60,773 bases of DNA, from assembly GCA_964598205.1 (NCBI GenBank), contig CAZRBB010000006.1:1-60773 (forward strand), written 5' to 3'. This document shows, piece after piece, positions 4,256 to 60,773 of this stretch (positions are counted from its first letter, which is position 1; every line of letters starts with the position of its first letter). Origin of the DNA: an uncultured Candidatus Saccharibacteria bacterium. Its GTDB lineage: Bacteria > Patescibacteriota > Minisyncoccia > CAIUEV01 > JAHKAQ01. Made by a program: the position numbers and the translations under genes. The notes below the pieces were generated by a model, which did not search any database, had not been told where the DNA came from, and saw only the letters and a program-made list of their open reading frames with translations.

Positions 4256-4284
4256 ATTAAAAATCTTTCTTCTGATTTTAAAAA

Positions 4285-5502: not shown

Positions 5503-5518
5503 ATAATTTAAACCTAAA

Positions 5519-36324: not shown

Positions 36325-36400
36325 TGGTGGACTCTGGGGGATTCGGACCCCCGGCCTCCTCGGTGCAAGCGAGGCGCTCTACCAACTGAGCTAAGAGCCC
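36325..36400 (-). tRNA. tRNA-Ala(UGC), CCA encoded
   Basis: GGGCTCT acceptor with G3:U70, anticodon arm CCTCG-CTTGCAC-CGAGG, T-loop TCCGAAT. Confidence 0.96.
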
Positions 36401-38301: not shown

Positions 38302-38304
38302 TCT

Positions 38305-38481
38305 TTAGCTTAGAAACTTCTTATTCATTTCTTTGTCTCGATCTCTTAATTCAGCAATTTTGCCTTTGTTCCACATGGAGTCCTTAGAGAAATAGCCGGT
38401 AACGCGGGTAATATGGTCCACATTTTTACTGCCACAGAACGAGCACTGGCAAGTCATTTTTTTGGTTTTTAGCTGGCTCAT
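38305..38481 (-). CDS. Stand-alone NrdD C-terminal Zn-ribbon/glycyl-radical module, 58 aa (MSQLKTKKMTCQCSFCGSKNVDHITRVTGYFSKDSMWNKGKIAELRDRDKEMNKKFLS)
   Basis: Translated by hand (below the ORF-track cutoff); CSFCGS..ITRVTGYFS..WNKGK.AELRDR matches the NrdD C-terminus; radical Gly codon 38395-97. Confidence 0.92.
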   Translation of the reverse strand: MSQLKTKKMTCQCSFCGSKNVDHITRVTGYFSKDSMWNKGKIAELRDRDKEMNKKFLS

Positions 38482-38534
38482 CTTTTTTGTTTTACTTTTT
38501 AATTATTGAAATTTTTTATTGGCTAAATAAACGC

Positions 38535-40556: not shown

Positions 40557-41008
40557 CTTTTTTGCTTTAATTTTTTTATTTCTTTGTCAAAACTTTCTAA
40601 GGAACCAAAGGAACGGTAAACCGAAATAAATCGTAGGTAAGCCACATGATCTGTCTTTTTGATTTGCTCTAAAACTAATGTCCCAATTTCCTTGCTAGAA
40701 ATTACCGGCTTGTTGGCAGAAAAAATCCGACTTTCTATTGTGTCCATTATTTCTTCTATTTTGCGGTTGTCTACTGGCCGCTTTTCTAGTGCCTTTTTTA
40801 AACCGGTTTCTATTTTTTCTCTTTGGTAAGCTTCTTTTTCACCGCTTCTTTTTAGAATCAAGATATCGGTCAGCTCCGGGCGTTCATAGGTAGTGAACCG
40901 AGAGTGACACTTTTCACATTCCCGCCGCCGCCGAATAATTCGAGCTTCTTCGGCGTCTCGGGAATCAACGACACTTGTTTCTTCGTTTTCACAAAAAGGG
41001 CAACGCAT
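40553..41008 (-). CDS. nrdR: Transcriptional repressor NrdR (likely start MRCPFC at 41008)
   Basis: MRCPFC..VVDSR..RRRRECEKCHSRFTTYE, HVAYLRFISVYRSF; ATGA overlap with nrdD. Confidence 0.97.
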   Translation of the reverse strand: MRCPFCENEETSVVDSRDAEEARIIRRRRECEKCHSRFTTYERPELTDILILKRSGEKEAYQREKIETGLKKALEKRPVDNRKIEEIMDTIESRIFSANKPVISSKEIGTLVLEQIKKTDHVAYLRFISVYRSFGSLESFDKEIKKLKQKR

Positions 41009-41040
41009 TTTGTTTTTTAAAGGCTCCTTAGGGGCTTTTT

Positions 41041-41056
41041 CCACAATATGTGGTAG
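41041..41056. promoter_or_regulatory. NrdR-box-like operator CCACAATATGTGGTAG
   Basis: 11/16 match to acaCwAtATaTwGtgt; lies between the promoter and the nrdR start. Confidence 0.65.
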
Positions 41057-41067
41057 AGGTAAGTGGC

Positions 41068-41095
41068 ATTATAGCACAACCAAATTCCGATGCAA
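41068..41095 (-). promoter_or_regulatory. Promoter of the nrd operon, TTGCAT-N16-TATAAT with extended -10 (TGTGCTATAAT)
   Basis: -10 at 41068-73, -35 at 41090-95. Confidence 0.65.
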
Positions 41096-41136
41096 ATCTA
41101 AGAAAAATCCCTTTAATTAGCCAAAAAAACAGTCAC

Positions 41137-41172
41137 AAAAAAAGAGCAGGGATTAATCCCCGCTCTTTTTTT
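41137..41172. terminator. Bidirectional intrinsic terminator after ftsZ
   Basis: A7-GAGCAGGGAT-TA-ATCCCCGCTC-T7. Confidence 0.85.
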
Positions 41173-41189
41173 ATTAAAGAAATATTTTT

Positions 41190-42443
41190 TTAGCGCCGAT
41201 CTTCTGGGGACATTTTTTTCCTAATAAAAGTAGGAATTTCTAATTCGTCTTCGTCTTCTCGACCTTTATTTTCTAATTCGTCGGCATACCGTATTCGCTT
41301 GGTTGGTCTTTTTATTTTTTGAGGTTCAGCTGTTTTTTCTTCGGAAAATTCGTTGAAAGAAGGTACTGATCTAGAAACCGAAGGCTCAAAGCTTGTATTA
41401 TTCACTCCTTGCATTCCCGAAGATCTTTGCTCAGAAGAAGAGGAAGGCATTTCTAGGTTGCCTAAATTTTCTTCTGGATCAAAACCAGTAGCTACCACTG
41501 TAATTGTAATTTCGTCTTTCTTTTGATCTAATTGTTCTTTGTCTAAAAGCGCAGTACCAAAAATAACTTTAGCGTTGGGATCAATATTTTCTGTAATTAC
41601 GCTGGCCGCTTCGTTGATTTCCATCATTCCAATATCTGGACCGCCTAGAACATTAAACAGAACTCCCTTAGCTCCATCAATAGACATTTCTAAAAGCGGA
41701 GAGTTAATTGCCTGACGCGCCGCTTCTGCCGCTCTGTTTTCTCCAGAAGCCCTTCCAATACCCATTAGGGCCGATCCGGCATCTTTCATGATCATTTTAA
41801 CATCGGCAAAGTCAAGATTGACTGTTCCAGGAATTGTAATTAAATCAGAAATTCCTTGAACACCTTGTTTTAGGATGTCGTCAACTGCCTTAAAAGCACA
41901 AAGCAAGCTAGTTTTTTTATCTATTACTTGTAATAGCCGATCGTTAGGAATAGTTACTAAAGCGTCTACCCGATCTTTTAGGTTTTCTATTCCTTCTTCC
42001 GCAATTGCCGTTCGTTGTGCTCCTTCAAAGGTAAAAGGTTTGGTAATAACGCCTACGGTTAACGCTCCCGATTCCTTGGCTACTTCTGCCACTACCGGAG
42101 AAGCTCCTGTGCCAGTACCGCCACCCATTCCACAGCAAACAAAAATCATGTCCGCATTTTTAAGTACTTCATTGATTTCGTCGCGATTTTCTTCGGCCGC
42201 TTGCCTACCGATTTCTGGATTCATACCAGCACCACGACCTTTGGTTAGATTTTTACCAATATGAATTTTTTCTGTGGCGTGATTAAGATGAAGATCTTGG
42301 GCGTCGGTATTGATCGCCACGAACTCAATTCCTCTCATTTTTGATTCCATCATTCGATCAATGGCATGTCCACCACCACCACCCACTCCCACCACCAGAA
42401 TCCTAGCGGAGACCTCAATATTAGTTTTTACTTCTGCGACCAT
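41190..42443 (-). CDS. ftsZ: Cell division protein FtsZ
   Basis: [33 protein letters not shown]-terminal LEIPTFIRK. Confidence 0.99.
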
Positions 42444-42489
42444 ATTCTTAAAAAACTTAAGATTTATTTTGATTCTTAACTAATCAGGA

Positions 42490-42519
42490 ATGCTAGCACA
42501 ACTAAAATTCTTCTGTCAA
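42490..42519 (-). promoter_or_regulatory. Putative ftsZ promoter TTGACA-N18-TAGCAT with extended -10 TG
   Basis: -35 at 42514-19, -10 at 42490-95. Confidence 0.55.
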
Positions 42520-42525
42520 TTAGAT

Positions 42526-43803
42526 TCAAGGGAGAAATTCGTTTTTAACCCAATTTTTTATTTTCCCAACAACATCCTTTACGGGAAAAGGAAGTTTCCT
42601 GTGCCATCCCCCTCCTTTTCTACCCCAAGGCCAAGTCCATCCTCCGTCGCCTTCAAAATTATCCATTCCCCAAAAGATTAAACCGGCGGCAGTAACAAAT
42701 CCAGGTTCATCTATTTTATCTATGATTCCGCCTAGCTCTTTGGGGAAACCGGTTTGAGCGGGTAACTTTAAAACATCTTTGGCCAAATCCACGGAGCCAA
42801 TCAGCTTGGCCGATCCTCCCACTAAAACAACTCCAGCAGGAAGCATGCCATCGCGATCAATCCTTTTTAACTCTTTGTTGACTAGTTCAAAAATTTCCTC
42901 CATCCGCGCTTCTATAATTTCGGCAACATGTCTTCTGGAGATTATAATTCCTTCGTTTTTATCGAATTTAGAAAGATCAATTTGATCTTTTTTCCCAATC
43001 TCAGCCGACAAGCAGGAACCATATTTAATTTTGACTTCTTCGGCTACTTCAATAGAGGTGCGTAGTCCAATGGCAATATCATTAGTAATATTCGCACCAC
43101 CAATGGGAATAATTCCTATATGCAAAAGTTCGCCTTGATCATAAACGGCAACACTGGTGGTTCCTGCACCAATACTCACCAATGCTACTCCTAATTCTTT
43201 TTGGCGTCTGTTTAAGGCAGACATTTCTGCTGCTAAGGGAGCAAGCACTAATTCGTTTTCGCTGATTCCTGTTTGAAAAAGACATTTCCGAATATTTTTT
43301 AAGTGAGTAGAAGAAGCTTCGATAATTAAACAATCGGCTTCCAGCCGTACTCCACTCATTCCTATTGGATCCTTAATTTCGTCTTGGCTGTCTAAGGTAT
43401 ATTTTCGGGGAATAACATGAATGATTTCTTTGTTATTGGGAATAGAAATAGTTTCGGCTTGCTCTATGGCACGATTCACATCTCTTTCGGTTACTTCGCC
43501 ATTAGCCATGCCAATAGCAATCGCTCCCTTAGTCACTTGAGAAGTAATATCACCATTGCCAATACTTACAAAAGCATTTTCCACCGGTACTCCCGCCATT
43601 CGTTCCGCAGTCTCTACTGCTTTATTAATAGCGGCAGCCGTTTCCTCTATGTCCACTACCAGTCCCTTCCTCATTCCAAAAGCAGCTTCTTCTCCCACTC
43701 CAATAACTAAAGGTTTGTCACCTTCTCTTTCTGGTCTTTGCGCAACAATAACCCGCACCTTAGAGGTTCCAATATCGATAGCGACAACCGTATTACTATT
43801 CAT
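42526..43803 (-). CDS. ftsA: Cell division protein FtsA (start at 43803; the ORF-track start lies inside tRNA-Ile)
   Basis: AIDIGTSKV, GMRKGLVVD, IHVIPRKY, IGAGTT, AEEVKIKYG, LVGGSAKL. Confidence 0.98.
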   Translation of the reverse strand: MNSNTVVAIDIGTSKVRVIVAQRPEREGDKPLVIGVGEEAAFGMRKGLVVDIEETAAAINKAVETAERMAGVPVENAFVSIGNGDITSQVTKGAIAIGMANGEVTERDVNRAIEQAETISIPNNKEIIHVIPRKYTLDSQDEIKDPIGMSGVRLEADCLIIEASSTHLKNIRKCLFQTGISENELVLAPLAAEMSALNRRQKELGVALVSIGAGTTSVAVYDQGELLHIGIIPIGGANITNDIAIGLRTSIEVAEEVKIKYGSCLSAEIGKKDQIDLSKFDKNEGIIISRRHVAEIIEARMEEIFELVNKELKRIDRDGMLPAGVVLVGGSAKLIGSVDLAKDVLKLPAQTGFPKELGGIIDKIDEPGFVTAAGLIFWGMDNFEGDGGWTWPWGRKGGGWHRKLPFPVKDVVGKIKNWVKNEFLP

Positions 43804-43848
43804 TTTTTGTTTTAGAAGACTTATTGCTTTTTCCTTAGCCTTGCTTAG

Positions 43849-43922
43849 TGGGCGACTCAGGACTCGAACCTGAGACCTCGTCATTATCAGTGACGCGCTC
43901 TAACCAACTGAGCTAGTCGCCC
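43849..43922 (-). tRNA. tRNA-Ile(GAU), CCA not encoded
   Basis: GGGCGAC acceptor, anticodon arm CGTCA-CTGATAA-TGACG, TTCGAGT T-loop; followed by CTA. Confidence 0.96.
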
Positions 43923-43931
43923 CCTATTTAA

Positions 43932-44012
43932 TGACGAATTACCGATCACAAATTACGAATTATCAACTAGCCATTCTCACTTATTCGTAATTCGTGATTT
44001 AACATTCGTAAT
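43932..44012. repeat. AT-rich AATTACG/ATTCGTA-type quasi-palindromic repeat
   Basis: acgaatt..aattacgaatt ... attcgtaattcgt..attcgtaatt; overlaps the 3' end of ybeY. Confidence 0.6.
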
Positions 44013-44486
44013 TAAATGAAAATATTCCCTAATCACTCTTTTTTCCTTGGCCTTCATTATTGCTTCTTCCTTTCTGGTTTGGTGATCTTGGCCAGAAAGG
44101 TGAAGCACTCCGTGAGCAATTGTCCTTACCAGCGCTTCTGGAAATCCCTCTTGTTCTTCTTTTAAAGAAAGAACAAAATCTGGCGCTATATAAACTTCTC
44201 CCACGCTCTCTTCTTTATTGAGGGTAGGCTTTTCCCCATGATCAGTACCGTATCGGTAATCAAAAGAAAGTACATCTGTTACCCCTTCCTTGTGCCGAAA
44301 CCTCCGATTCAATCCTTCTAAAAAACTATCCTCTGCAAAAATCAAATTGATCACTAAAGGAAGTCTGGTTAAATCGCTTAAGCCCAACCGTAAAGCCTTA
44401 TCTAATCTTTCTTTCTTTATAAAATCTAATCGTTCCTTCCCTGAATAGTCGTTCTTAAAAACCGCAATCTTAAAAGAGCTGTTCAC
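43977..44486 (-). CDS. ybeY: rRNA maturation endoribonuclease YbeY
   Basis: LNRRFR..TDVLSF, GEVYI, AHGVLHLSGQDH. Confidence 0.93.
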   Translation of the reverse strand: MNSSFKIAVFKNDYSGKERLDFIKKERLDKALRLGLSDLTRLPLVINLIFAEDSFLEGLNRRFRHKEGVTDVLSFDYRYGTDHGEKPTLNKEESVGEVYIAPDFVLSLKEEQEGFPEALVRTIAHGVLHLSGQDHQTRKEEAIMKAKEKRVIREYFHLITNVKSRITNK

Positions 44487-44929
44487 TGAAGGATTTTTAA
44501 AACAGCTTCCTTTACTACTTCTCCAGAAGCTCTTCCCTTAACTTCTTTAATGGCAATTCCCATTACTTTCCCCATATCTTTTGGCGACTCCGCCTTAGCT
44601 TCTTTTACTGCTTTTTCCACAATTTCTTTTAGTTCTTCTTCCGATAAATCTTCTGGCAGAAGCTTCTTAATGATCACTATTTCTTTCTCCTCTTTTTCCT
44701 TTAAATCTAAACGACCACCAGCGCCGAATTGTTCGGCAGCATCCTTCCTTGATTTTACCTGACTTTGCAAAATTACCAAAATTTCTTCTTCTTTTAATTC
44801 TCGCTTGACTTCAATTCTCTTGTTCCCAATAGCAGATTTAAGTAATCGAAAAACACTAGTCGTTAAACCGTCTTTAGCTTTTAAGCTTTCTACTAATTTT
44901 TGATTGATTGTTGAAATTAAATCGGACAT
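44483..44929 (-). CDS. GatB/YqeY domain protein
   Basis: QVKSRKDA..F..GGRLDL..KEEKEI, KDMGKVMG, GRASG. Confidence 0.92.
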   Translation of the reverse strand: MSDLISTINQKLVESLKAKDGLTTSVFRLLKSAIGNKRIEVKRELKEEEILVILQSQVKSRKDAAEQFGAGGRLDLKEKEEKEIVIIKKLLPEDLSEEELKEIVEKAVKEAKAESPKDMGKVMGIAIKEVKGRASGEVVKEAVLKILQ

Positions 44930-50171: not shown

Positions 50172-51101
50172 TTAAACAGAAGCCGAAGAAAGTAAAGATT
50201 TTATTTCTTTTTTAATTGCATTCACACAATCAGCGCAACTACCATTCTTGATTTGGTTTTTTACCAAAGCATACTTTCTAAATTCAATAAAAGCTGGCAT
50301 TTTTTTTTCGTAGACATCTTGAAAATCTTTTAACTCCCCTAGCTTAATTGGTTCAGCAAAAATACAAGGATGAATTCCAGTAGCGGAAAGACAAAAATTC
50401 TTCCCCTCTAGTCTTGAACAATTCAGGAGATCGGCTTGTTCTTTACCAGGAGGACTGATTACAACCTTCCCTTTATATTTTTCTATTTCTCCCAATAAAG
50501 ATTCGTAGACTGGTGTTAAACTTTTTCCTTGGCGCCTATTCTTGTAATCAACTTCATTTTGAAAATTAAGATTGACTGCTCCTAACGATTCAACGAAGCT
50601 AAAAAATCGGCTAAAGTCACCTTTTTTAGCTAGATTTTCTCCAGACAAAACACAAGTTACGCGCAAATTATGACCGCCTTTGGCAATTAACCTGATTGCT
50701 TCTACTGCTTTATCAAAAGAAGTTCCCTTTCGCATTTTTTCGTGTTCTTCTTTTTTATCGCTGTCTAGGCTCACAGAAAAACTAATTTCTCCTTTAGTGT
50801 TTTCTTCTATAAACTCCAGCCATTCTTTGTTAAAAAGGATTCCGTTAGTTTCAAAAAGAATATTCCATTTTAATTCCTTAATAACCCTGAACAATTCTTT
50901 TAATTGCGAGTACAAAAGAACTTCACCGCCTGTTAACCCCATGCTCCGGTAGCCCAGCTGGTGCGCTTCTTTCATTATTTTTTCTAATTTTGGAAGAGGA
51001 ATTTCTGCCTTTGATTTTTTGCGCAAACAGTAGGCACATTTTAAGTTGCACTTATTAGTTACGATTACGGCAAGGTGGGGATTTCCAAATTTAGGAGGCA
51101 T
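50172..51101 (-). CDS. Radical SAM protein with Twitch/SPASM-like tail
   Basis: CNLKCAYC, TGGE, ETNG, SLDS; C..GIHPC..CADC. Confidence 0.92.
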   Translation of the reverse strand: MPPKFGNPHLAVIVTNKCNLKCAYCLRKKSKAEIPLPKLEKIMKEAHQLGYRSMGLTGGEVLLYSQLKELFRVIKELKWNILFETNGILFNKEWLEFIEENTKGEISFSVSLDSDKKEEHEKMRKGTSFDKAVEAIRLIAKGGHNLRVTCVLSGENLAKKGDFSRFFSFVESLGAVNLNFQNEVDYKNRRQGKSLTPVYESLLGEIEKYKGKVVISPPGKEQADLLNCSRLEGKNFCLSATGIHPCIFAEPIKLGELKDFQDVYEKKMPAFIEFRKYALVKNQIKNGSCADCVNAIKKEIKSLLSSASV

Positions 51102-51117
51102 AAAAATATGTTTATTT

Positions 51118-54084
51118 TTATCTTTCGTTAAACGCTTCGGAAGGAATAGTATCTAAGAAATTAAAATAATCCCTCATTGGTCTTTCTGGAGAAAAAGCCC
51201 AACGACCTTTAATTTGCAAAAGCTTAATATCATTTAAATTAAACTTTTTAAAACTCTTTCCATTGTTCATGCTTTTAAGCAAAAAATCAACTTGCTCTTT
51301 TATACTAGAAAAACACGATAGATCTCCAGGAACAAAAGCCTGAAAATCATCTGTTGTTCCGACTAAGCCAAGTTTTAAATCGTGACCCATATTTTTTAGT
51401 TCTTCCACATTTTGAGCTTTTATCTCTTTTTCTTCTTCTATTAAATAAACAAAAAAAGATAAGCTCCCCAGCTCGGAAAGCCAAATAGGCTTATGTAGGG
51501 AAAAAGAGGAGCAATCATCGGTGATTCTTGGGGTTTCTTTTAAGGCTCTGTTAACGCAATTAAGAACACCATTTAGATAATTCTTTTTATCATTAGAAAA
51601 ATTGCTAAAAGCAAATCCCCTTTTTCTATTAAACCAGCACCCTCTTCTTAATTCTCTTTTATTGATCAAAACAGCGACTCTTCCCTTTTTAACTAAATAT
51701 TTTTTTAAAAACGGTAAGTAACCAAAGCTCCCCCGTTCATCAAAAAGTAAAAAAGGAGTTCTCTTAAAATCAGAAAAAAGAAGTGCGGTAGCCGTATCTT
51801 TGGCGAGTTTGGCAATTTCTATCTCGCTCCTTTTTAAATGTTGAAGATCTTCTTTTTCTATCTCTTCCTTTTCTTCTAGGTAATCTTCTTTTATTTCTTC
51901 TAATCCGGAATAACTCCGGTGATAAACTGGGGAACCATATTTCTTGTACTGATCTTCTTTTTCAAAAGACACTTCTTCTTTCTTTATTTGATCCAGAGAA
52001 GCTATGCAATTATAAGGAATGCCGGCGACATTGCCAAAGTTAAGCTTGGACCCACTGCCAATAACTACTAGGGCTTTTACCAAAATGATTCCATTTTTTT
52101 CAGTAAACTCTTTGGCCCTAGCAATGGTTCTTCCCTTGTTGGTTATATCATCTATAAAAATCGCTTTTTGACCCCGAAAATTACGACTGCCCTCTATTTG
52201 CAAACAAAGATCCCCCATTTTACCTTCTTTTCTAATATAGCAAACTTCTAATTTTTCTCTTGGGAAAAAAACATCGTTTAAGGCTAGAATCGCCCCCATT
52301 ATTGGGAAGCTAGAGGTTTCAAAGCCTATTAAAAGCCTAGGCTGGGACTTGATTTTTCTAATATAATCTAAAAATATTTTGGCAATCAAAGAAATCGGCC
52401 GATCGTACCCAAATATTTCCCGAACATCCATCATGAATGAATTTTCGTTTCCCGGCACTTTCTGGCCATTCTCTACTAAATAATATCTTTCATAAGTTTT
52501 AATCTTATCCGAAAATTCATCTTTTTTAACAAAATAATTAAGTTTGACTGCATACTGTCTTAAATAGTAGAGGACTTCTTTTTCTAGGGCTTCGGTGTTC
52601 CAAGGTGGAGGTAGTAATTCCTTGTCTTTATTGCTTAAGCTAAAATAGCCATTCTCTTTGTGTTCAATGTTTTTTAAGAAAAAATTGGCATTATTCTCCG
52701 CACTTCGATAATCAAAAAAACTTCTTTTCTTTTCCTTGTCTAAAAGGAAAGGAAATAAAAATAAATCTTTTCTGTAAGAAAAAATATTTACTCCTACTCC
52801 CATTTGGAAAAATGGGTTTCCTTTTTCCTCAAAGGAATAGAAAATGGGCTTATTATTTTTAATTTCTGCTGGACAACAATGAACTCCTGAACCAAGAACA
52901 ATATCTACCCCCGACTTGGTAAGAAAATCGGCAAAATCCTGATGTTTTTTTTCAATATTGGCCTCTCCTGCTCCCCAGCGACAAAAAACAATCAATGTTT
53001 TTGCCTCTTTTTTAAACTGCTCAATCTTTTCTTTGAGGTGTGGTTTTTTTTCTTCTTCTTGATATTCGGAATAATTCAAATCCCAAAAACCGATCCTACT
53101 CTGTGCTATTTCTTTGACAATTATCCCCTTACAAGCCAAGGAACTAACAGAAGGATCGTTTAGCTCTTTTATTTTTATTTTCCTATTAAAATAATCAAAG
53201 AATCGACCATTTTCTAGAACCCAGAAAAAACGATGATCGTAAAGAACAATTAGATCCACTCCAATAAAAGTTCTAAAAAAGGCGGGAGAAAAGTCTTGAG
53301 AGAAAAAATCCTGATTATTTTGATTGAAGTAACAAATAACAGAGACTGCTCTTGGGGAGGAATATTTTTCTCCTTTCTTAAAAATAGAATTCAAATAACT
53401 GACCGAGCTTTCCGTGGTTAATCCTTCCCCCAAAAAAGCCGAGTTGCTTTTTCTTATTTTAACCTTAAAAAAGTTTCCTTTTTCTAAATATTTTAAGAGA
53501 AAATATAGAGATTTATTACTATCCCCTTCTATTTTTTGAATTTTATCAAAATCAAAACTCCTAATAGCCGAAGCGCTTATTTGATCGTGAAAATAAGCAA
53601 TTTTTCTTTGCGAATAATGAGAAAAATCAATGCTGGCAACTACTAAAACCTTTTTCTTTTGCGACTCGGCAAAAATAATCTCTGCTAATTGGTCTAGTTT
53701 TTCCCTAGAGCAATCTCTTTTAAAAACCAATGGGACAATTTTTGTATTTGGAAAGTAAATTTTAATTCTACCCGTAAGTGCAAAAATGGAATGTTCTCTG
53801 TAAAAAGTTGCTTCTTCTCTTTGGCAAATTTCCCTTGCTACCAATTTTTTTGCCAGCTCTTGATCTACTTCTAGTATTCCATAATCTGTTTTAAAGGAAT
53901 CAAAAGCCGTTTGGATTTCACCATTACCCAGGCCAAAATGGTTTGGCCCCGCAATTACTACAAGGTCGTATTCTTTTTCTGCCAAGGAAACTTCCTTAAA
54001 AAAGCCATCAATCAATGACTTAGCTATTGGAATATGGTGACAAACAATCCCTCCACCAACTTGTGGCTCTAGCTTATTGTTCAT
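51118..54084 (-). CDS. Fusion: MEMO (AmmeMemoRadiSam B) - CapA-like - PRTase - AMMECR1 (AmmeMemoRadiSam A); likely start 54084
   Basis: GIVCHH, IAGPNH, REHS, ASIDFSHY; WGAGE..GVDIVLGSGVH; FIDDITNKGRT; ELRRGCW..ETPRI..FVPG. Confidence 0.8.
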   Translation of the reverse strand: MNNKLEPQVGGGIVCHHIPIAKSLIDGFFKEVSLAEKEYDLVVIAGPNHFGLGNGEIQTAFDSFKTDYGILEVDQELAKKLVAREICQREEATFYREHSIFALTGRIKIYFPNTKIVPLVFKRDCSREKLDQLAEIIFAESQKKKVLVVASIDFSHYSQRKIAYFHDQISASAIRSFDFDKIQKIEGDSNKSLYFLLKYLEKGNFFKVKIRKSNSAFLGEGLTTESSVSYLNSIFKKGEKYSSPRAVSVICYFNQNNQDFFSQDFSPAFFRTFIGVDLIVLYDHRFFWVLENGRFFDYFNRKIKIKELNDPSVSSLACKGIIVKEIAQSRIGFWDLNYSEYQEEEKKPHLKEKIEQFKKEAKTLIVFCRWGAGEANIEKKHQDFADFLTKSGVDIVLGSGVHCCPAEIKNNKPIFYSFEEKGNPFFQMGVGVNIFSYRKDLFLFPFLLDKEKKRSFFDYRSAENNANFFLKNIEHKENGYFSLSNKDKELLPPPWNTEALEKEVLYYLRQYAVKLNYFVKKDEFSDKIKTYERYYLVENGQKVPGNENSFMMDVREIFGYDRPISLIAKIFLDYIRKIKSQPRLLIGFETSSFPIMGAILALNDVFFPREKLEVCYIRKEGKMGDLCLQIEGSRNFRGQKAIFIDDITNKGRTIARAKEFTEKNGIILVKALVVIGSGSKLNFGNVAGIPYNCIASLDQIKKEEVSFEKEDQYKKYGSPVYHRSYSGLEEIKEDYLEEKEEIEKEDLQHLKRSEIEIAKLAKDTATALLFSDFKRTPFLLFDERGSFGYLPFLKKYLVKKGRVAVLINKRELRRGCWFNRKRGFAFSNFSNDKKNYLNGVLNCVNRALKETPRITDDCSSFSLHKPIWLSELGSLSFFVYLIEEEKEIKAQNVEELKNMGHDLKLGLVGTTDDFQAFVPGDLSCFSSIKEQVDFLLKSMNNGKSFKKFNLNDIKLLQIKGRWAFSPERPMRDYFNFLDTIPSEAFNER

Positions 54085-55039
54085 CTGTAAAATCAAATGA
54101 TTTTTTAGAAAAAAAGTTAGAAAAGGCCAAAGAGCAAGACCAACAATCTCCATTTACATATTCGTCTCCCGTTAAAGCTGCCCTCCTTAAGCTTCCAAGG
54201 CCGGAGACAAAAGAAAAATCAGTGGCAAAGGCCTCTTTGAATCCACAGACCACACATTCTTCCTGGTAAAGGCAGGGATGGAATCCACGAGAAGAAAAAG
54301 TTAGGGCTTTATTGGTTTCTTCTATTTTGGAACAAAAAATCTTATCTCTTATTCCGTAGGTGGTGGGAATATTTATTAAATTTTTATATTTATTACTCAG
54401 AACACTTGCTCTAGAAGAAAAATCAATCATTTCGTTAACCGTTAGGGAATGTTCGCCCCCCTTGTTTCTCCCCAGAGTAACTATTGGGGAAAAAATACAA
54501 TTCGCTGCTCCTTTTTTGATTAAAAAAAGTGCAAAATTTTCCAACTCAACAGTTGGGGGATTATTTAATCGATTAATAACCGTATTTACCGAAAAAGAAT
54601 TACCCCTTTCCTTTAAAATGGAGAGCATTTTAATTGCCTTTTTAAAACTACCAGTACCCCTAAAAAAATCATGAACCTTTTCCTTGTAGCTATCCAAGCT
54701 GACCAAGAAAGAGATCCGAGAAGCAGGGATTAGCCCGAAGAGAGGATGTTTAATGAGTTTTTCAAAGTTCATACCGTTCGTTTCTATAAAAATGGAGAAA
54801 TTTTTTAGAGCAAGAAATTCTAAAATTTCAAAGAATTGTGAGTGGAGAGATGGTTCCCCGCCGGTTAAGGAGCAAGATTTTTTTAATCCAGAAACATCCA
54901 CCTTCCTTGCAATCCTTTTAATCATTTCAAAAGGAACTTCGTCGCTCTTGGAGCTATCGGCCTTGCGTAAACAATAAGTGCAATGCAAGTTGCATTTCCG
55001 AGTTAAGATGATATTAAGAGAAGAAACGGAAAAATCCAT
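54074..55039 (-). CDS. Radical SAM protein with Twitch/SPASM-like tail (paralogue of 50172)
   Basis: CNLHCTYC, TGGEP, ETNG, SLDS..D.FRGTGSF; C..GFHPC..CWSC. Confidence 0.92.
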   Translation of the reverse strand: MDFSVSSLNIILTRKCNLHCTYCLRKADSSKSDEVPFEMIKRIARKVDVSGLKKSCSLTGGEPSLHSQFFEILEFLALKNFSIFIETNGMNFEKLIKHPLFGLIPASRISFLVSLDSYKEKVHDFFRGTGSFKKAIKMLSILKERGNSFSVNTVINRLNNPPTVELENFALFLIKKGAANCIFSPIVTLGRNKGGEHSLTVNEMIDFSSRASVLSNKYKNLINIPTTYGIRDKIFCSKIEETNKALTFSSRGFHPCLYQEECVVCGFKEAFATDFSFVSGLGSLRRAALTGDEYVNGDCWSCSLAFSNFFSKKSFDFTDEQ

Positions 55040-55092: not shown

Positions 55093-55983
55093 ATGCAAGA
55101 AACTAATGACCAAAAAAGAATACTGGAACTAGATTTAACAAGTGTTGGCCATTTTAACGACCTTTTTTTTGGAGTTAAGGAAAAACATTTTGTCTCCTCG
55201 GCTAAACTCTTTGATTTTATTACCCAAAAAAAAGGTTCCTTGAATATTACCACAATTCTTCTTCGAGGATCTGGAGAACCAATGTTCCATCCCGATTTTA
55301 AAAAAATCGTTCGTTTTATTCAAAAAGAAAATATCGGCTTAAATATCTTTACCTTTCCTTATTTACTTAGTGATTATCAAAAAATATTAGGGGAATCATT
55401 TTCTTTGGTTGATTTCTCCTTTTATGTTTACCCCAACAGTGACTATGCCAAAGACTGGACTTTTCACTCTTCTTTTTTAAATGGAGAAAATCAATCACTC
55501 TTTAACCAAATCAGAAAACCATCTTTGTTTTATCTTTTAAACGAAAAGACAAGAGACTGCTTAGATGACTTTATTTGGGAAACAAGCAAAAGAGGTCTTA
55601 CTTTTAATATTTTACGACCAATGGAGAAAGAAAGCATTGTTTCTTCTGGCTTATTATCTAAAGCCAAGAGTCGATTTAAAAAGAATAATATTCATTTGAA
55701 TATTCAATGGGAAGATGGAAAAAATCCTAACTGCCTCTGTTCTTACTTTAGAGATCAAAGAATTTTTATGAATTGTGATAGTCAATTTTCTGTTTGCCAC
55801 TTTCTGCCTTTTTCAGACAAATACACTTTTTCGCCACTAGAAATTAAAGAAAATAATTCAGCGGCCAGTAATTTTTACTCTTTAATAAAAGAAAAAAGGG
55901 AAGAAGAGCGGAAAAAATATTTTATGAATAAAAAATATTTTTGTAGCCCTTGCGATATCTGTTTAAAGGTTTGTAGCAAGTAA
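55093..55983 (-). CDS. Degenerate radical-SAM-fold protein (no CxxxCxxC; auxiliary Cys retained)
   Basis: LELDLTSVGHF where CxxxCxxC is expected; GSGEPMFHPDF; CLC..VC..CSPCDIC tail. Confidence 0.7.
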
Positions 55984-55987
55984 AAAA

Positions 55988-58900
55988 CTAAACAAAAATC
56001 ATCTTTTTCCAAGATTTGATTTTCTTTGTTTTTTCCAAAAGCATTAGTGCCAATAAACCATAGTGACTGTATAGCCCTGTGGCTACTTGGTCTTTTGCGT
56101 TGCCAGCAAATCCTCCATTTTTAAAACAGCCTTTTAAGAATTCTTGGTGTCCTGGGTGCCTCTTTAGGTTTTCTCCTAAAATTTCTAGAGCTTGAATTGC
56201 AAAGTAAGTTGATTGAATTCCTGCTTCCTCCTTTGGAAAATGAGAAAAGCCACCGGTATCATTATTTTCACACAGATAAATAAACTTTTTTAATTCAGCT
56301 AGCTTGCTTGTAAACAAAGAGCAATCGGCTTGAGGATGCATCTTTTCTATGATTTTACAAGAAACAATCTGACGATAAACATCATAAAGAACCGTCCGGC
56401 TGTTTTTATAAGCCGAATCAAAAACCGAAAGAATTCCGCTAACTAACCTTTCTGGTATTTTTATATCTAAAAGATAGTGCAATAGAATAAGATAATAAAT
56501 TTCTACCGTCTCTCCTTCCTTTATTTTTTGCTCCAATCTTCCTTCTAAACTAGGAATAATGGCTTCTTTGGGTAAACCATACCCCAAAAGAGACAATGTT
56601 TTTATAAACCAATAATTCACTTTTTCTACAGAATGAAATCTAAAAGAATCCGTACAAAAGGCTTTTTCTTTTAAATATTTTTCTATTAAGAAAGCTAAAT
56701 AGTCCTTTTCTTTCTGACAATCCTTGTTTGTTTGTGAAGATCGAGAAAGAAGATTCCAGTAGCTAGCCAAGAAAACTAAATTAGTAAAGCTATGCCCCGA
56801 AAAACCACCGGTATCGCATTTTAAGGCAAGCACTTCTTTGATTATTTCTTCTTTATTAATATCTCTCCCTAAGAATTTATTAAACTTTATGTATTTTAGA
56901 GTGCCTGGAAAATCGTTTTTAACATTTGGTTTTGGCCATTGATGATTAATGCTTAAGCTGTGAAAATCATTGAATCTCAGTAGCGAAAGAATTTCTAATG
57001 TGGCGAGTGTTTCTTCGAAACTAAGGGTGTTTTCTTCTTTTTCTATTTTTTTGGAAAAGAATAAGAGTGACTCTGTTTTTTCTTCTTCGCTTAACGAATT
57101 AAGCTCTAAAAGAATTCCCATAATCTTTTTTTTGTTTTCTAGATCTAAACTTTCATTATAAAGAAACCTCTTTAAATAAGTTACCGTTTCTTTTTCAATG
57201 TCTTTAAAGCCGATATTAATTAAAGAAGAGACCCACAAAATTGTTGCCTCAAGAGACGATCCGCCACCAAATAATCCGTAACTGCCGCCGGAATTCAAAA
57301 AACTTTTAGCATAGTTAATAATCCCCAACTGATTTTTAGGCTTTATTCCTAGCAGATGGCAAGAAACCGTTACGCTGTGGTTGGTGGCACACCAAGGAAC
57401 ATGCCCTGGCCATTCACCAAAGCCGACTTCCCCCATTTGCAAGGAAAGAAGCCATTTCTCTGTGTCGGGAAAATCGAATTTATAATCCAACTCTTTTAAT
57501 ATTTCTAAACATTGACGAGTAGTTTCGTGGCAAGGAATCTTTCTTTTTGTTTCAAAATTTTTGTTAACGGAAAAATCTTCAATTTCTATTTTTTCTAAGA
57601 AATTTTCAATTGTCTCGGGAAGGGTGAGATTACTATCTCCTTCCTCTGCTAAATCATAACTAATTAGCGCATCCTCCTTGGCTTCTTCTTGGGGATTTGA
57701 CCTATTATAAGGGCAACCCTCTCTTTTAGCATTAACATAGCTGTCTAAAATATCCCATTTAGTAGGCGATTTTCTTTTTAATTCTTCTGGCCAAAGAAGA
57801 TAAAAAACAAAAGACTCGGCCAAGTCCTCCGCACCACTAAAAGCATAAAAACTAACGGCTATTTTTTTCTTTTCTTCAATAGTTTTTTCTTTTCCGAGAA
57901 TTTTATCCCCATCAACAAAATATTCCCAATCCTCTAAAAGCTCTTTTCCTTTTGGAATAGATCCTAAGAAAAGATGCATCATTTCGTGAGCAATGGTGGC
58001 TTTTAAATTATCCAGATCCCAAATGCGGTATCCTTCTTCCCGAAAAACGAAAGGATAGAGAGTAATTCTTTTTTCTTTAATGCTGGCCATTCCTCTAGAT
58101 AAAGGAGTCAGTCTGATTCTTTCTTCCCTATCGTAATCGTTTTCTCCAGGATAGATTGCCTTAGCACAATGATTGGGGCAATCTTTTTCTTCTATTATTA
58201 TTTCTTCTATTAGGTCTTTAAAGAGAGGGTTTAAGTTAAGAATAAGACTCAAAATATTAGCTATCTTTTCTAAATAAACATCGGTAAGTAAAACTGATTT
58301 TGATTTTACTTGAATCTTCTTTTCTTGTTTTACTAGATTAATAATTTTAAAATCTTTTAGATTTTCTGTTCTACCTTCCTCTTCTTTTTTGGAAAAATCA
58401 CCTAAAAGCAGGCAACCGGAACAGTTAAAAATTCCGCTTTTTTTAATTTTTTCTTGAATTGGCTTTAGCTTGGTGTCTACGGTTCTAGCAAAGCTAAAAA
58501 AATCAAAATCCTTATCTTCTTTATTAATAACCAAGTCTGCTTCTTCTTTGCCAAAATAAGGGCAAAAATTTAATTTGTAATTATAGTCTAAAAATAAATC
58601 AGCTCCTTCCAAGTAACTGCATAAATGCTTTCTTCCCTCTCCTCCTAAGGAAAAAAAGGTTTCTTTTTTAAACCCTTCTTTAAAAAGAAGTTTTTCCCAT
58701 CTTACGATTTGCTCCTTGGAAGGAAGATAGTTTTTAAGTCCTTCCGGAAGAGATCCTAAAAAAGAGAGATCTTTAAAAAACCAAAGATCGGGCCCAACTA
58801 ATTCCAAAAAATCATTCATTCTTACTACTGTTTCCAAAAAATTATGCTTTCCTAAATAAATCCTTACTCCTATTTTTTTCTTCCTTTTCTTAGCTTCCAT

Positions 58901-59281
58901 TAAAAAGTCAATTTTCCTTTTTAAACTGCCCTTTGATTCAAAAATATTATCCGTTCTTTTTTGAATGCCATATAGATTAACGCTAAGAAAATTTAGAGAA
59001 GCATTGTTCCAAAAAGCAAACTCCTGATCGTTTTTTAAAAAAGAAATCTCCATTTCTACTGTAAATTCGTTTTCTTCTAAAAAAGAAAGCAGTTCCTTTA
59101 TTTTGGAATAGCCCAAGGGATTATTTAGGAGCCTGATTCTTTTTAAACCATTGGCGCGAGCGCTTTTTAGGAAGCGCAAAAGCCATTCAAAATCAATTTC
59201 TATTGATTTTGGTTGATTAAAAAAATAATAATCCCTTTGATTGTTTAGGTCTAAAAGTAAAATATAGGACATTAATCCCAA
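55988..59281 (-). CDS. 1097-aa fusion: degenerate rSAM/Twitch - zincin metallopeptidase - prenyltransferase/squalene-cyclase-type repeats
   Basis: HLC..FC..CSGC; HEMMH (57974-88) plus EDLAESF; repeated xGGF/Y units (NSGGSYG, DTGGFSG, DTGGFSHFP..STYFAIQAL, NGGFAG). Confidence 0.75.
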   Translation of the reverse strand: MGLMSYILLLDLNNQRDYYFFNQPKSIEIDFEWLLRFLKSARANGLKRIRLLNNPLGYSKIKELLSFLEENEFTVEMEISFLKNDQEFAFWNNASLNFLSVNLYGIQKRTDNIFESKGSLKRKIDFLMEAKKRKKKIGVRIYLGKHNFLETVVRMNDFLELVGPDLWFFKDLSFLGSLPEGLKNYLPSKEQIVRWEKLLFKEGFKKETFFSLGGEGRKHLCSYLEGADLFLDYNYKLNFCPYFGKEEADLVINKEDKDFDFFSFARTVDTKLKPIQEKIKKSGIFNCSGCLLLGDFSKKEEEGRTENLKDFKIINLVKQEKKIQVKSKSVLLTDVYLEKIANILSLILNLNPLFKDLIEEIIIEEKDCPNHCAKAIYPGENDYDREERIRLTPLSRGMASIKEKRITLYPFVFREEGYRIWDLDNLKATIAHEMMHLFLGSIPKGKELLEDWEYFVDGDKILGKEKTIEEKKKIAVSFYAFSGAEDLAESFVFYLLWPEELKRKSPTKWDILDSYVNAKREGCPYNRSNPQEEAKEDALISYDLAEEGDSNLTLPETIENFLEKIEIEDFSVNKNFETKRKIPCHETTRQCLEILKELDYKFDFPDTEKWLLSLQMGEVGFGEWPGHVPWCATNHSVTVSCHLLGIKPKNQLGIINYAKSFLNSGGSYGLFGGGSSLEATILWVSSLINIGFKDIEKETVTYLKRFLYNESLDLENKKKIMGILLELNSLSEEEKTESLLFFSKKIEKEENTLSFEETLATLEILSLLRFNDFHSLSINHQWPKPNVKNDFPGTLKYIKFNKFLGRDINKEEIIKEVLALKCDTGGFSGHSFTNLVFLASYWNLLSRSSQTNKDCQKEKDYLAFLIEKYLKEKAFCTDSFRFHSVEKVNYWFIKTLSLLGYGLPKEAIIPSLEGRLEQKIKEGETVEIYYLILLHYLLDIKIPERLVSGILSVFDSAYKNSRTVLYDVYRQIVSCKIIEKMHPQADCSLFTSKLAELKKFIYLCENNDTGGFSHFPKEEAGIQSTYFAIQALEILGENLKRHPGHQEFLKGCFKNGGFAGNAKDQVATGLYSHYGLLALMLLEKTKKIKSWKKMIFV

Positions 59282-59754
59282 GTCAAAAGTTTATAAGAAG
59301 ACTGTCTTTCACCGAATCGATACATTCTGCCAATAATCTTGGCAATTATCTTGTCTTTTTTAATTGGACCAAAAACCCTAGAATCTTGACTCCCTCCCCG
59401 ATTATCTCCTAAAACTAAAAATTCATTTGTTCCTAATTCCCAATAAAAATTACCGAGCGGCTTATCCTTAATGTAGGATTCTTCTAGAATAGTTTTTTGA
59501 CCATCTTGTTCTATAGTAATAAAACCATCTTTATATTCTACTTTTTCCTTGGGTAGTCCAATGACTCGCTTTAACATCTTACCTCCTGTTTTTGTTGGAT
59601 TCCAAAAAAGGATTATTTCTTTTCTCTTTATTTCTTCTTCTTTCTTAATATCTCTAAAAGCAAAAAAATCACCATTATTGTAAAAAGGTTTCATACTTTC
59701 TCCGTTTACCATGTCTACAAAATACTCTTTCATTAATTCTTTAAATAGCGACAC
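59272..59754 (-). CDS. Signal peptidase I (S26)
   Basis: GESMKP (catalytic Ser), LKRVIGLP (Lys), LGDNRGGSQDSRVFG. Confidence 0.92.
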   Translation of the reverse strand: MSLFKELMKEYFVDMVNGESMKPFYNNGDFFAFRDIKKEEEIKRKEIILFWNPTKTGGKMLKRVIGLPKEKVEYKDGFITIEQDGQKTILEESYIKDKPLGNFYWELGTNEFLVLGDNRGGSQDSRVFGPIKKDKIIAKIIGRMYRFGERQSSYKLLTWD

Positions 59755-60619
59755 ACCCTCCCTGACACTCTTTGCTTATAAAAAAATCACATTCTAAGCA
59801 TCCATTTTTCTTGGCCACTTCTAATTTTTTATTTTGTACCTCTTCTTTAAAAATTAAAAGACCTTGATTCATTTTTTTCCCGATATTATTAATATTCTTG
59901 GTTATATGAAGCGCTGAACAGGGCTGGATAGTTTCCCCATCTGGATGAAAAAGAATGTTTACTCCTGGATTACAAGTTCCATAGAGGCCACAATTTCTTT
60001 TTAAGAAAGACCTTTCAAAAACAGAAAAAACACAAAGGGCAACGGGATTATCAAGAACAACACTATCCTTATAAAAAAGGATTTCGTTGGCAAAGTCAAA
60101 AAGTTTTTTACCGATTTGTCTTTCTATGGCATAGCCTTTTACGGGAGCAAAAACCACCGAAGCATTGTGTCTTTTGGCTAAGCGACCCACTTGAGAGAAC
60201 ATTGATCTTTTGTCTTCTGTTTCCACATTGTACCGAAAACAAAGATTGGTCTTATTTTGAGAATAAAATTCAATAGTTTTTAGGACTCTTTCTTTTTTAT
60301 CGTTATAAAAAATATTCTTAACATTAATCACTACTTTGCTAGGAAAAACACGCAAAGGCTCAATCCCGTTGGTTAAGACTGTGGTATTTATTCCTTTTTC
60401 CCGACAATAAATAATCGCCTGATCAATTCCTTTCCAAACAGAAGGCTCTCCCCCTAAGATGTTGACATCTGTTCCACCGAGTTGCTGGTGTTCGTCTACA
60501 ATCTTTCTAAATAAAGCCCCTTCCATTTCTTTAGGGAAGTCTTTTTTGTAAGGGTTTGTGTAACAGTATGGACAATAAGAATTGCAATTATAAGAGGGAG
60601 CAATAAGAATTCTGGGCAT
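59741..60619 (-). CDS. Radical SAM/SPASM protein (likely start MPRILI at 60619)
   Basis: CNSYCPYC, GGEP, LTNG; SPASM: GTC..PDG..QPC..CLEC..ECQGGC. Confidence 0.93.
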   Translation of the reverse strand: MPRILIAPSYNCNSYCPYCYTNPYKKDFPKEMEGALFRKIVDEHQQLGGTDVNILGGEPSVWKGIDQAIIYCREKGINTTVLTNGIEPLRVFPSKVVINVKNIFYNDKKERVLKTIEFYSQNKTNLCFRYNVETEDKRSMFSQVGRLAKRHNASVVFAPVKGYAIERQIGKKLFDFANEILFYKDSVVLDNPVALCVFSVFERSFLKRNCGLYGTCNPGVNILFHPDGETIQPCSALHITKNINNIGKKMNQGLLIFKEEVQNKKLEVAKKNGCLECDFFISKECQGGCVAI

Positions 60620-60633
60620 ATCTTCTTGTAAGC

Positions 60634-60773
60634 TTAAATACCGGAAGATCCGCAAGCTTGACTGCCTCCACAGGCTTCACAAGCTTGATCGGAAGAGCCA
60701 GCTGAACCGGAAGAGTCAGCTGCGCCTGAAGATCCGCAAGCTTGACTGCCTCCGCAAGCTTCACAAGCTTGAT
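60634..60773 (-). CDS. 3' end of a Cys/Ser/Gly-rich repeat ORF, candidate RiPP precursor, 5'-truncated: QACEACGGSQACGSSGAADSSGSAGSSDQACEACGGSQACGSSGI*
   Basis: Open from the window edge to TAA at 60634-36; all four differences between repeat copies are synonymous third positions in this frame; 14 nt upstream of the rSAM start. Confidence 0.85.
   Translation of the reverse strand, partial: QACEACGGSQACGSSGAADSSGSAGSSDQACEACGGSQACGSSGI
60644..60773. repeat. 46-bp direct repeat with 84-bp period (60644-89; 60728-73)
   Basis: GAAGATCCGCAAGCTTGACTGCCTCC(A/G)CA(G/A)GCTTCACAAGCTTGAT; two mismatches. Confidence 0.95.

Follow-up and report, generated by a model that had tools for sequence, protein, structure and literature searches.

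We describe a Cys-rich tandem-repeat open reading frame (ORF) that runs off the end of a 60,773-nucleotide stretch of DNA from an uncultured Candidatus Saccharibacteria bacterium (the whole stretch analyzed is called the window below) and that lies directly upstream of a gene for a 292-aa radical-SAM (rSAM) enzyme. The window edge cuts a genuine gene, whose repeat array is probably the ribosomal substrate of the adjacent rSAM enzyme, with the individual units perhaps released by an S26 protease encoded next to it. Modification of Cys-rich, repeated ribosomal peptides by rSAM enzymes is an already known kind of system. New here are a near-unsampled rSAM family with a putative maturase that lacks an RRE, long repeat units that are near-identical in DNA, and a soluble S26 partner protease.

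A tandem array of Cys-rich units at the window edge

The ORF occupies positions 60634..60773 of the minus strand, where 45 codons are followed by a TAA stop at 60634-60636, and its 5' part extends past the window edge. Positions 60634-60771 of this strand translate as QACEACGGSQACGSSG-AADSSGSAGSS-DQACEACGGSQACGSSGI (complete translation, QACEACGGSQACGSSGAADSSGSAGSSDQACEACGGSQACGSSGI). This stretch comprises a penultimate core, (D)QACEACGGSQACGSSG (60724..60773, minus strand), whose Asp codon straddles the window edge; a short last linker of 11 aa, AADSSGSAGSS (60691..60723, minus strand); and a last core, DQACEACGGSQACGSSG (60640..60690, minus strand), which is followed by Ile (60637-60639) and the stop codon. 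Each core spans 17 aa with Cys at unit positions 4, 7, and 13, and the last one shows four synonymous changes relative to the other cores. A repeat search of the window returned two 49-nt copies (60641-60689 and 60725-60773) that are 84 nt apart and 94% identical. An earlier sequence-only reading of this DNA had proposed a hidden multi-core ORF absent from the ORF track, which the translation confirms; the Cys-frame ORF escaped the ORF list for the sole reason that it continues past the last position of the window.

Searching for exact copies of the rSAM protein yielded six further contigs of the same strain (three Logan and three JGI metagenome contigs, one of them extending over 282.5 kb), which match the window with 100% identity over stretches of up to 10.9 kb. 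The array is thus recovered in seven independent assemblies including the window. The longest extensions (L004 and L006) contain at least four identical 17-aa cores, DQACEACGGSQACGSSG, a count that is a lower bound, as all seven assemblies end inside the repeat. The penultimate core of the window is identical to the L004 cores at 69-119, 180-230, and 291-341. The upstream linkers are 20 aa long, AAGASGAAGAAGSAGAAGST, and three of them are seen in L004/L006, the first one only partly; the 11-aa AADSSGSAGSS occurs as the last linker only. In L004/L006, upstream of the window edge, TRF reported a 111-nt (37-aa) unit with 3.1 copies and a 99% match, together with 9- and 18-nt sub-repeats. The 28-aa period originally proposed therefore holds for the last two copies but not for the longer units upstream, and the two copies originally counted are those within the window. 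The proposed Ser/Gly/Ala linkers between identical cores are borne out by the extensions, in which the ORF continues as a tandem array with Gly/Ala/Ser linkers between its repeated cores. Such an array is far beyond a chance repeat.

Exact look-ups of the rSAM or the S26 peptidase, with both start variants of each, returned no contig spanning the repeat, and the partial products called on the contigs that end in it are absent from the protein collection. Short-read assemblies break in the array because the 111-nt tandem repeat is 99% identical, and one contig (L005) carries a longer linker variant upstream of the third-last core, so that the array is either polymorphic or collapsed by the assemblers. 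Early closure of the frame, which the sequence-only reading had named as the outcome that would speak against a precursor, does not occur: in L004 the Cys frame stays open for 142 codons with no stop. No in-frame ATG, GTG, or TTG is found across these 142 codons, and the start of the ORF must therefore be further upstream. Retrieval of upstream sequence, as originally suggested, thus extended the array to at least four cores but stopped short of the start and the leader. With every assembly ending within the array, the full product may turn out to be a large protein and not a small precursor.

Coding frame of the repeat

Two frames are open through the repeat, the Cys frame and a second one (IKLVKLAEAV..), while the third frame has stops. 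The Cys frame is almost certainly the coding one. All five nucleotide differences between copies, counted over cores and linkers, occupy third codon positions in the Cys frame and leave the amino acid unchanged, and the chance of five substitutions in one phase is (1/3)^5, or ~0.004. Four of these differences (GCT/GCC, TGC/TGT, TCA/TCC, and GGC/GGT) had been listed beforehand, correctly, and all four lie at the third codon position. The repeat itself has 60% GC compared to ~35% in the genome. Nevertheless, the Cys frame has a GC3 of 0.25 and a mean log2 RSCU of +0.18, as opposed to 0.69 and -0.60 in the alternative frame, with a genome reference GC3 of 0.33 (30 long genes of the window). The preference for the Cys frame expressed in the sequence-only reading is therefore upheld by codon usage, which fits the genome in this frame and departs from it in the other. 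The evidence for selection comprises the five substitutions and the codon usage of a single strain, from which all contigs derive; since all of them are 100% identical to the window, a comparison of selection between strains is impossible.

The gene callers disagree about this region. The Logan contigs have recorded gene calls in the Cys frame, and the JGI pipeline annotated the alternative frame as a gene of 125-158 aa; in the ORF list of the window, the alternative frame appears as a 58-aa ORF at 60588-60764. One could hence argue that the alternative frame (..IKLVKLAEAVKLADLQAQQVLQ..) encodes the real product and that the Cys frame is a by-product, given that the alternative frame stays free of stops over the entire repeat and that one gene finder called it. 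We consider this very improbable: besides its aberrant codon usage, the inter-copy differences would change residues of the alternative product (L/P, A/V, Q/P, and A/V), this product has no family match, and the frame overlaps the start of the rSAM gene, so that the JGI call had to shorten the rSAM to 261 aa. That the sequence is a non-coding tandem repeat or an assembly artefact of contig ends, as might be suspected from the fact that every contig ends in the repeat, is hardly credible at all, since short-read assemblies can be expected to break at a 111-nt repeat that is 99% identical and the same sequence occurs in seven independent assemblies from two pipelines. Moreover, the repeat periods of 111 and 84 nt are both multiples of three, the variation follows codon phase, and the array closes with a stop codon that precedes the next gene by 14 nt. 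Taken together, codon usage and codon-phase data effectively exclude both the alternative-frame gene and the non-coding repeat.

The adjacent rSAM enzyme

The gene that follows the repeat encodes an rSAM enzyme of 292 aa (59741..60619, minus strand; Pfam PF04055) with its CxxxCxxC motif at residues 12-19. Because this Cys triad starts at residue 12, there is no N-terminal recognition domain, and the enzyme lacks the RRE that marks a sactipeptide maturase. Two distant relatives (P0005 and P0006) have an N-terminal extension of ~160 aa. At the C-terminus, seven Cys residues are conserved (196/216/234/274/277/285/289); their arrangement, C216-x11-G-x5-C234 and C274-x2-C-x7-C-x3-C289 plus C196, is SPASM-like, with spacings that differ from the canonical SPASM motif CX2CX5CX3C. 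The Pfam SPASM model did not match the 292-aa rSAM.

An AF2 model of the enzyme (pLDDT 80.5) found its best PDB folds in SuiB, PqqE, EpeE, SkfB, MoaA, TigE, and anSME, and phmmer against the PDB placed SuiB, PqqE, and SkfB closest by sequence. Most of the structural matches of the model are peptide-modifying SPASM/twitch enzymes, which suggests that the 292-aa rSAM is of this type as well. None of the curated NCBIfam models for RiPP maturases scored above its cutoff on this protein. Its best sactisynthase match was StsB (40.6 bits; cutoff 625), with matches covering the N-terminal rSAM core only, and the PapB model NF047865 reached 23.5 bits (cutoff 340).

Gene neighborhood and co-transcription

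The stop codon of the peptide gene lies 14 nt before the ATG (60619) of the co-oriented rSAM gene, nothing resembling a promoter or terminator separates the two, and the repeat ORF thus sits immediately beside an enzyme of the putative peptide-modifying type. The genes for the rSAM, an S26 protease, and a 1094-aa protein abut or overlap. The repeat ORF is therefore very probably co-transcribed with these next three genes on its strand.

The second of them encodes a signal-peptidase-I-type serine protease of family S26 (146-160 aa; 59272..59754, minus strand), which matches Pfam PF10502 with 85 bits and exceeds the cutoff of NCBIfam TIGR02227 (90.9 versus 47 bits). The Ser/Lys dyad motifs GESMKP and KRVIG, and also GDNRGGSQDSR, can be read in its translation. 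The protein has no membrane anchor (the maximum 19-residue Kyte-Doolittle hydropathy is 0.31) and in this respect differs from typical housekeeping enzymes, which carry one at the N-terminus. The third gene encodes a multidomain protein of 1094-1097 aa (55988..59281, minus strand; assigned by Pfam and motif reading) that combines an N-terminal rSAM-like domain without the Cys triad, a HEMMH motif at residue 432, and a C-terminal alpha/alpha-toroid repeat of the prenyltransferase type. It has no sequence relative in the PDB, and an AF2 model built from the single sequence of its C-terminal 498 aa (1097-aa form) was unusable (pLDDT 45).

Beyond these three genes, membership in the same system is uncertain. 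An rSAM-like protein of 296 aa without CxxxCxxC and with a Cys-rich C-terminus is encoded on the plus strand (55093..55983), followed on the minus strand by a second rSAM of 321 aa (54074..55039), a fusion of Memo (AmmeMemoRadiSam B-like), PGA_cap, and phosphoribosyltransferase domains of 988-1011 aa (51118..54153), and a third rSAM of 309 aa (50172..51101), of which the 321-aa rSAM is a paralogue. This second block also holds a nucleotidyltransferase and a glycerophosphotransferase, and its role may lie in the synthesis of the cell envelope instead of the peptide pathway. The initial proposal that the repeat is the substrate of the downstream enzymes is accordingly narrowed: genomic context supports it for the adjacent rSAM, but the second rSAM block is set apart by a gene of opposite orientation and continues into genes of the cell-envelope type, and the only genes that follow the repeat at close distance on its strand are those for the 292-aa rSAM, the S26 peptidase, and the 1094-aa protein. 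Judged from this context, the repeat ORF is most likely the substrate of the adjacent rSAM.

The wider window consists of ordinary chromosomal DNA with ftsA, ftsZ, nrdR, nrdD, nrdG, mreC, bipA, and many glycosyltransferase genes. By its nrdD and nrdG genes, the host is an anaerobe.

A sparsely sampled rSAM family adjoining Cys-containing peptides

Searches with the peptide itself gave no relatives. The 45-aa peptide had no match at E<=10 in a word-indexed search of 5.8 billion proteins, phmmer found none among 1.84 billion representatives, and a degenerate DNA pattern for ACEACGGxQAC was absent from genome and metagenome contigs. Pfam and NCBIfam assigned the peptide to no family and returned sub-threshold, compositional matches only; among the NCBIfam models, those for ACGX and for SCIFF-type peptides did not match it (ACGX at E<=10). 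At the sequence level, the peptide is thus without a detectable relative in the collections searched and falls into no family.

The rSAM family is small but traceable. A word-indexed search gave 3 proteins, a profile search of 5.8 billion proteins retrieved 8 members, and scans of genomes and metagenomes added L009, from a Spirochaetales MAG, and L010. The loci L011-L021 were left out, as they match the generic N-terminal rSAM core only. Wherever the flanks of a relative could be read, which was the case for five of them, the rSAM gene is adjoined by a short ORF or tail that contains Cys. At L010, an ORF of ~367 aa that ends in DCPx repeated 17 times lies directly upstream, the repeat tail being joined to a non-repetitive domain of ~300 aa. 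At L007/L008, a 92-aa peptide is encoded directly downstream; it has an N-terminus resembling a signal peptide, with an AQA|DS site, and a Gly/Asp-rich tail that holds four DC motifs. A conserved peptide of 68-69 aa with a Tat/Sec-like N-terminus, ending in ..VDCPEPYAKYSKTTYYYYTTYYY, is encoded directly upstream at L009 and L022/L023, and at L025 a 78-aa acidic ORF with four Cys lies downstream. The L009-type peptide is also Tyr-rich. Outside these five relatives, the P0002 contig has an 80-aa ORF downstream of its rSAM, and the L024 contig starts 55 nt before the rSAM gene.

According to tblastn searches with the cluster proteins, the other cluster genes are not conserved at the related loci. 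As the rSAM alone is conserved, the conserved unit consists of the rSAM and a Cys-bearing peptide or tail, and co-occurrence does not tie the rest of the cluster to the peptide. This conserved pairing is the strongest argument for the repeat ORF as the rSAM substrate. The peptides of the relatives differ greatly, with DC/DCP motifs there and xAC here, so that a shared chemistry cannot be read off from them.

Comparison with known systems

The closest parallel in the spacing of Cys residues is subtilosin A (SboA/AlbA), a 35-residue sactipeptide in which C4, C7, and C13 act as donors and residues 22, 28, and 31 as acceptors (PMC8172795). The cores described here carry Cys at the same positions (C-x2-C-x5-C) within a 37-aa unit, as compared to a unit of ~35 residues in subtilosin A (PMC8172795), and further similarities lie in an adjacent rSAM with C-terminal cysteines of a putative auxiliary cluster and in small Ala/Ser/Gly residues of the acceptor type after the Cys cluster. 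In contrast to the single core behind a leader in subtilosin A, at least four tandem units are present here. Likewise, AlbA has an N-terminal RRE and ~450 aa, while the rSAM described here has 292 aa and no N-terminal domain. The NCBIfam model for AlbA is not among the 25 listed matches of the 292-aa rSAM and scored 50.6 and 56.9 bits (cutoff 850) on two other rSAMs of the cluster only. In a subtilosin-like reading, the last unit would be without an acceptor half, and the S-C-alpha bond is a prediction for the present array.

A repeated Cys motif within one precursor, processed motif by motif by a SPASM rSAM, is also known from the ranthipeptides (PapA/PapB freyrasin; SCIFF/CteB; PMC9413430). 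A single rSAM, PapB, cross-links six repeated Cys-X3-Asp/Glu motifs with high tolerance for their context but does not accept the transposed D...C motif (PMC9413430). The cores in the window differ in that they have no Cys-Xn-Asp/Glu in the PapB orientation, with Cys on the N-terminal side, except for the adjacent C4-E5 pair (n=0), and in that neither C7 nor C13 is followed by an acidic residue before the core ends. A PapB-type motif is thus absent from the window cores and present in L010 (C-P-x-D), where CP-x-D, repeated 17 times, resembles a C-X2-D version of the PapA motif.

The combination of one rSAM acting on repeated motifs with an adjacent serine protease is shared with the triceptide-type WprA/WprB/WprP system (PMC11851443, PMC12957482). 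WprB modifies three repeated motifs independently (PMC11851443), and the neighboring serine protease cuts the modified precursor uniformly (PMC12957482). That system differs in forming Trp-Arg C-C bonds, which are not Cys-based, and in using an S9 rather than an S26 protease; in addition, the WprA repeats are 3-residue motifs, as opposed to units of 17-37 aa that are near-identical in DNA. In bufferins, Cys residues are modified and precursors with Sec signal peptides are processed by signal peptidase (PMC11626156), which is paralleled here by Cys-bearing targets, by the signal-like peptides of L007 and L009/L022, and by the S26 enzyme encoded at the present locus. Bufferins differ in being modified by MNIO and DUF2063 proteins instead of an rSAM and in having a single, folded core, and the S26 protein here is soluble and dedicated rather than a housekeeping membrane enzyme.

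A further similarity concerns the A-C-G-x element, which occurs in each core (EACGG, QACGS) beside rSAM/SPASM genes. It resembles the ACGX-repeat peptides of the rSAM_ACGX system (NCBIfam TIGR04340). The two differ in that TIGR04340 scored 47 bits (cutoff 400), on the 321-aa rSAM only; a literature search for ACGX returned only unrelated papers.

Other roles for the repeat array

Apart from a substrate that is cross-linked and cut into units, the array may be read in two further ways. In one of them, the ORF makes up the C-terminal portion of a large protein with a structural or surface role, with collagen- or polyproline-II-like segments and Cys residues that form disulfide or metal knots, and the rSAM is either unrelated or just a factor in the maturation of this protein, as opposed to an enzyme that makes a small natural product. 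Each 37-aa unit contains eight consecutive Gly-X-Y triplets starting at the Gly after the third Cys (GSS GAA GAS GAA GAA GSA GAA GST), and this register of Gly at every third residue is readable in the translation as well as in the 9- and 18-nt sub-repeats. There are also sub-threshold matches to collagen (26.3 bits for Pfam Collagen, PF01391, with a cutoff of 27.2) and weak ones to the NCBIfam SclB/Lcl collagen-like adhesins. In addition, the N-terminus of the ORF lies beyond all assemblies, which would allow for a large product, and the equivalent repeat tail of L010 is attached to a non-repetitive domain. Nevertheless, we regard this as unlikely, albeit a serious alternative for the full-length product: all collagen-type matches stay below their cutoffs and are driven by composition (SclB, 18.8 versus 325 bits), and the eight triplets per unit, which have no Pro or charged residues, do not amount to a long uninterrupted Gly-X-Y stretch, whose register is moreover broken in the last linker by a D where G is expected. 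The tight coupling to an rSAM whose relatives adjoin Cys peptides without Gly-X-Y linkers argues in the same direction, and structural disulfides are less expected in an anaerobic host. A structural role and rSAM modification are compatible with each other and not exclusive.

The other possibility is that the array is modified but acts as a metal-binding peptide or as a cofactor precursor (bufferin-, PQQ-, or mycofactocin-like) instead of an antibiotic-type product, with CxxCG knuckles or modified Cys residues binding the metal. Three Cys plus Asp/Glu per 17 residues, the 'CxxCG' knuckle in CEACGG, and weak zinc-ribbon matches are in line with this idea, as are the Sec/Tat-like signal sequences of the relatives' peptides, which resemble those of bufferins (PMC11626156), the presence of PqqE among the best structural matches of the rSAM, and the Memo-type protein encoded nearby. 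On the other hand, no MNIO or DUF2063 genes are present, and the zinc-ribbon matches lie far under their cutoffs. Sequence alone does not separate metal binding from cross-linking, and we consider such a function possible but unlikely.

Proposed mechanism

Returning to the array as a substrate of the adjacent rSAM, we propose that the enzyme would act on or beside the Cys residues of each repeat unit and may recognize the repeated core rather than a leader, which fits its lack of an RRE. The most likely chemistry would be the formation of sacti- or ranthi-type thioether cross-links from Cys to carbon, while other outcomes, such as epimerization (known from EpeE) or oxidation of Cys (known from anSME), are conceivable. 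Because Cys 4/7/13 match the subtilosin A donors, the 20-aa linker is possibly the acceptor half of a 37-aa hairpin unit; alternatively, it may be a spacer only. Proteases of the S26 family prefer small residues at positions -1 and -3. The S26 enzyme could thus cut within the Ala/Gly/Ser linkers, or else remove a signal-like leader, and thereby free the units.

Taken to its full extent, this mechanism would define a new class of polyprotein RiPPs, in which many self-contained 37-aa units, numerous enough to break all short-read assemblies and each with a Cx2Cx5C donor half and a Gly/Ala/Ser acceptor half, are cross-linked in a leaderless manner by an RRE-less rSAM and released by a soluble S26 protease. 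We put this forward tentatively, as a possible but rather doubtful outcome. If the more general reading of the array as the rSAM substrate is right, it would add a new family of rSAM maturases, with 8 members among 5.8 billion proteins, that is paired with strikingly different Cys-containing substrates. The precursor architecture, with long units that are near-identical in DNA, would be unusual for thioether-type peptides, and a soluble enzyme of the signal-peptidase-I type would take on a new job as a RiPP processing protease.

The gene is invisible in protein databases because short-read assemblies break in the array and because one pipeline chose the wrong frame and shortened the rSAM. Such invisibility implies that repeat-built precursors are probably undercounted in genome mining.

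Reading frame and register of the repeat

Across the Cys-rich repeat, the JGI annotation calls the alternative frame on three other contigs of this strain that end inside the repeat (L004 1-477, L005 7-384 and L006 3-440); in the window this frame is open at 60588-60764 (minus strand). This is the wrong frame, and because it was called, the adjoining radical-SAM (rSAM) enzyme was cut from 292 to 261 aa. The miscall also helps explain, in part, why the Cys peptide is missing from protein databases. Starting at the Gly that follows the third Cys, every third residue of each repeat unit is Gly (linkers at window 60691-60723 and L004 120-179), giving eight Gly-X-Y triplets per unit (GSS GAA GAS GAA GAA GSA GAA GST) that are composed of 9- and 18-nt sub-repeats. 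The Gly spacing accounts for near-threshold matches of the repeat peptide to the Collagen model; in the last, short linker (window 60691-60723), the register is interrupted.

ORFs beside homologues of the rSAM

At L010, a ~367-aa ORF (3691-4842, plus strand) precedes a 29%-identical rSAM homologue (4883-5740), with roughly 40 nt between its stop and that gene. The non-repetitive N-terminal domain of the ORF carries two CxxC pairs and its C-terminal end consists of 17 tandem DCPx units (DCPDDCPADCPADCPDDCPRD...). It could be a C-X2-D ranthipeptide-like substrate on a protein-sized 'leader'. The N-terminally extended homologues at three further loci are directly preceded by a conserved 68-69-aa peptide (L009 4709-4915, L022 1328-1537 and L023 3-146, all on the plus strand) with a Tat/Sec-like N-terminus (SRKDALKRMAKMGLGAAGMVAALSVF) and the tail VDCPEPYAKYSKTTYYYYTTYYY; it shares its cluster with four to five more rSAM or rSAM-like genes, one of them B12-binding. 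Just 3' of the 34%-identical rSAM at L007 lies a 92-aa ORF (2826-3104, plus strand) with a signal-like hydrophobic segment, an AQA|DS site and the tail DCFDHDCANTDGNDCASGDCGEGGADGGDGSE, which matched no Pfam family.

Further proteins of the window cluster

In a 1094-1097-aa multidomain protein (window 55988-59281, minus strand), the N-terminus is rSAM-like without CxxxCxxC, HEMMH, a motif of the metalloprotease type, lies at residue 432, and the C-terminus is an alpha/alpha-toroid of the prenyltransferase type (PF00432, 42 bits). No relatives of this protein were found in PDB or NCBIfam, and a single-sequence AF2 prediction of its C-terminal part was too low in confidence to use (pLDDT 45). 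Encoded on the opposite strand within the cluster is a 296-aa rSAM/SPASM-maturase-like protein (window 55093-55983, plus strand); lacking the Cys triad of the SAM cluster and retaining a Cys-rich C-terminus, it is, judging by its sequence, a 'pseudo-rSAM'. Opposite-strand rSAM-like genes in comparable placement occur at L009 (6433-7290, minus strand) and on the contig of the rSAM relative P0002.

Between two rSAM paralogues of 321 and 309 aa, which share 30% identity, lies a fusion of Memo/AmmeMemoRadiSam-B-like, PGA_cap (CapA-type) and phosphoribosyltransferase domains (988-1011 aa; window 51118-54153, minus strand), an unusual domain combination. The longest ORF for this fusion reaches 80 nt into the upstream rSAM gene, so the real start is probably later; gene calls on the Logan contig give 988 aa.

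Chromosomal context

Ordinary chromosomal genes (yqeY, ybeY, ftsA, ftsZ and nrdR) occupy window 37585-44929 (minus strand), together with the anaerobic ribonucleotide reductase gene nrdD and that of its activase. At the 90% identity level, no database relatives of the window's housekeeping proteins were found, a sign of a poorly sampled lineage. Two tRNA genes lie at 36328-36400 and 43849-43922; as the ftsA ORF (42526-43884, minus strand) is annotated to begin inside the latter, it probably starts later.
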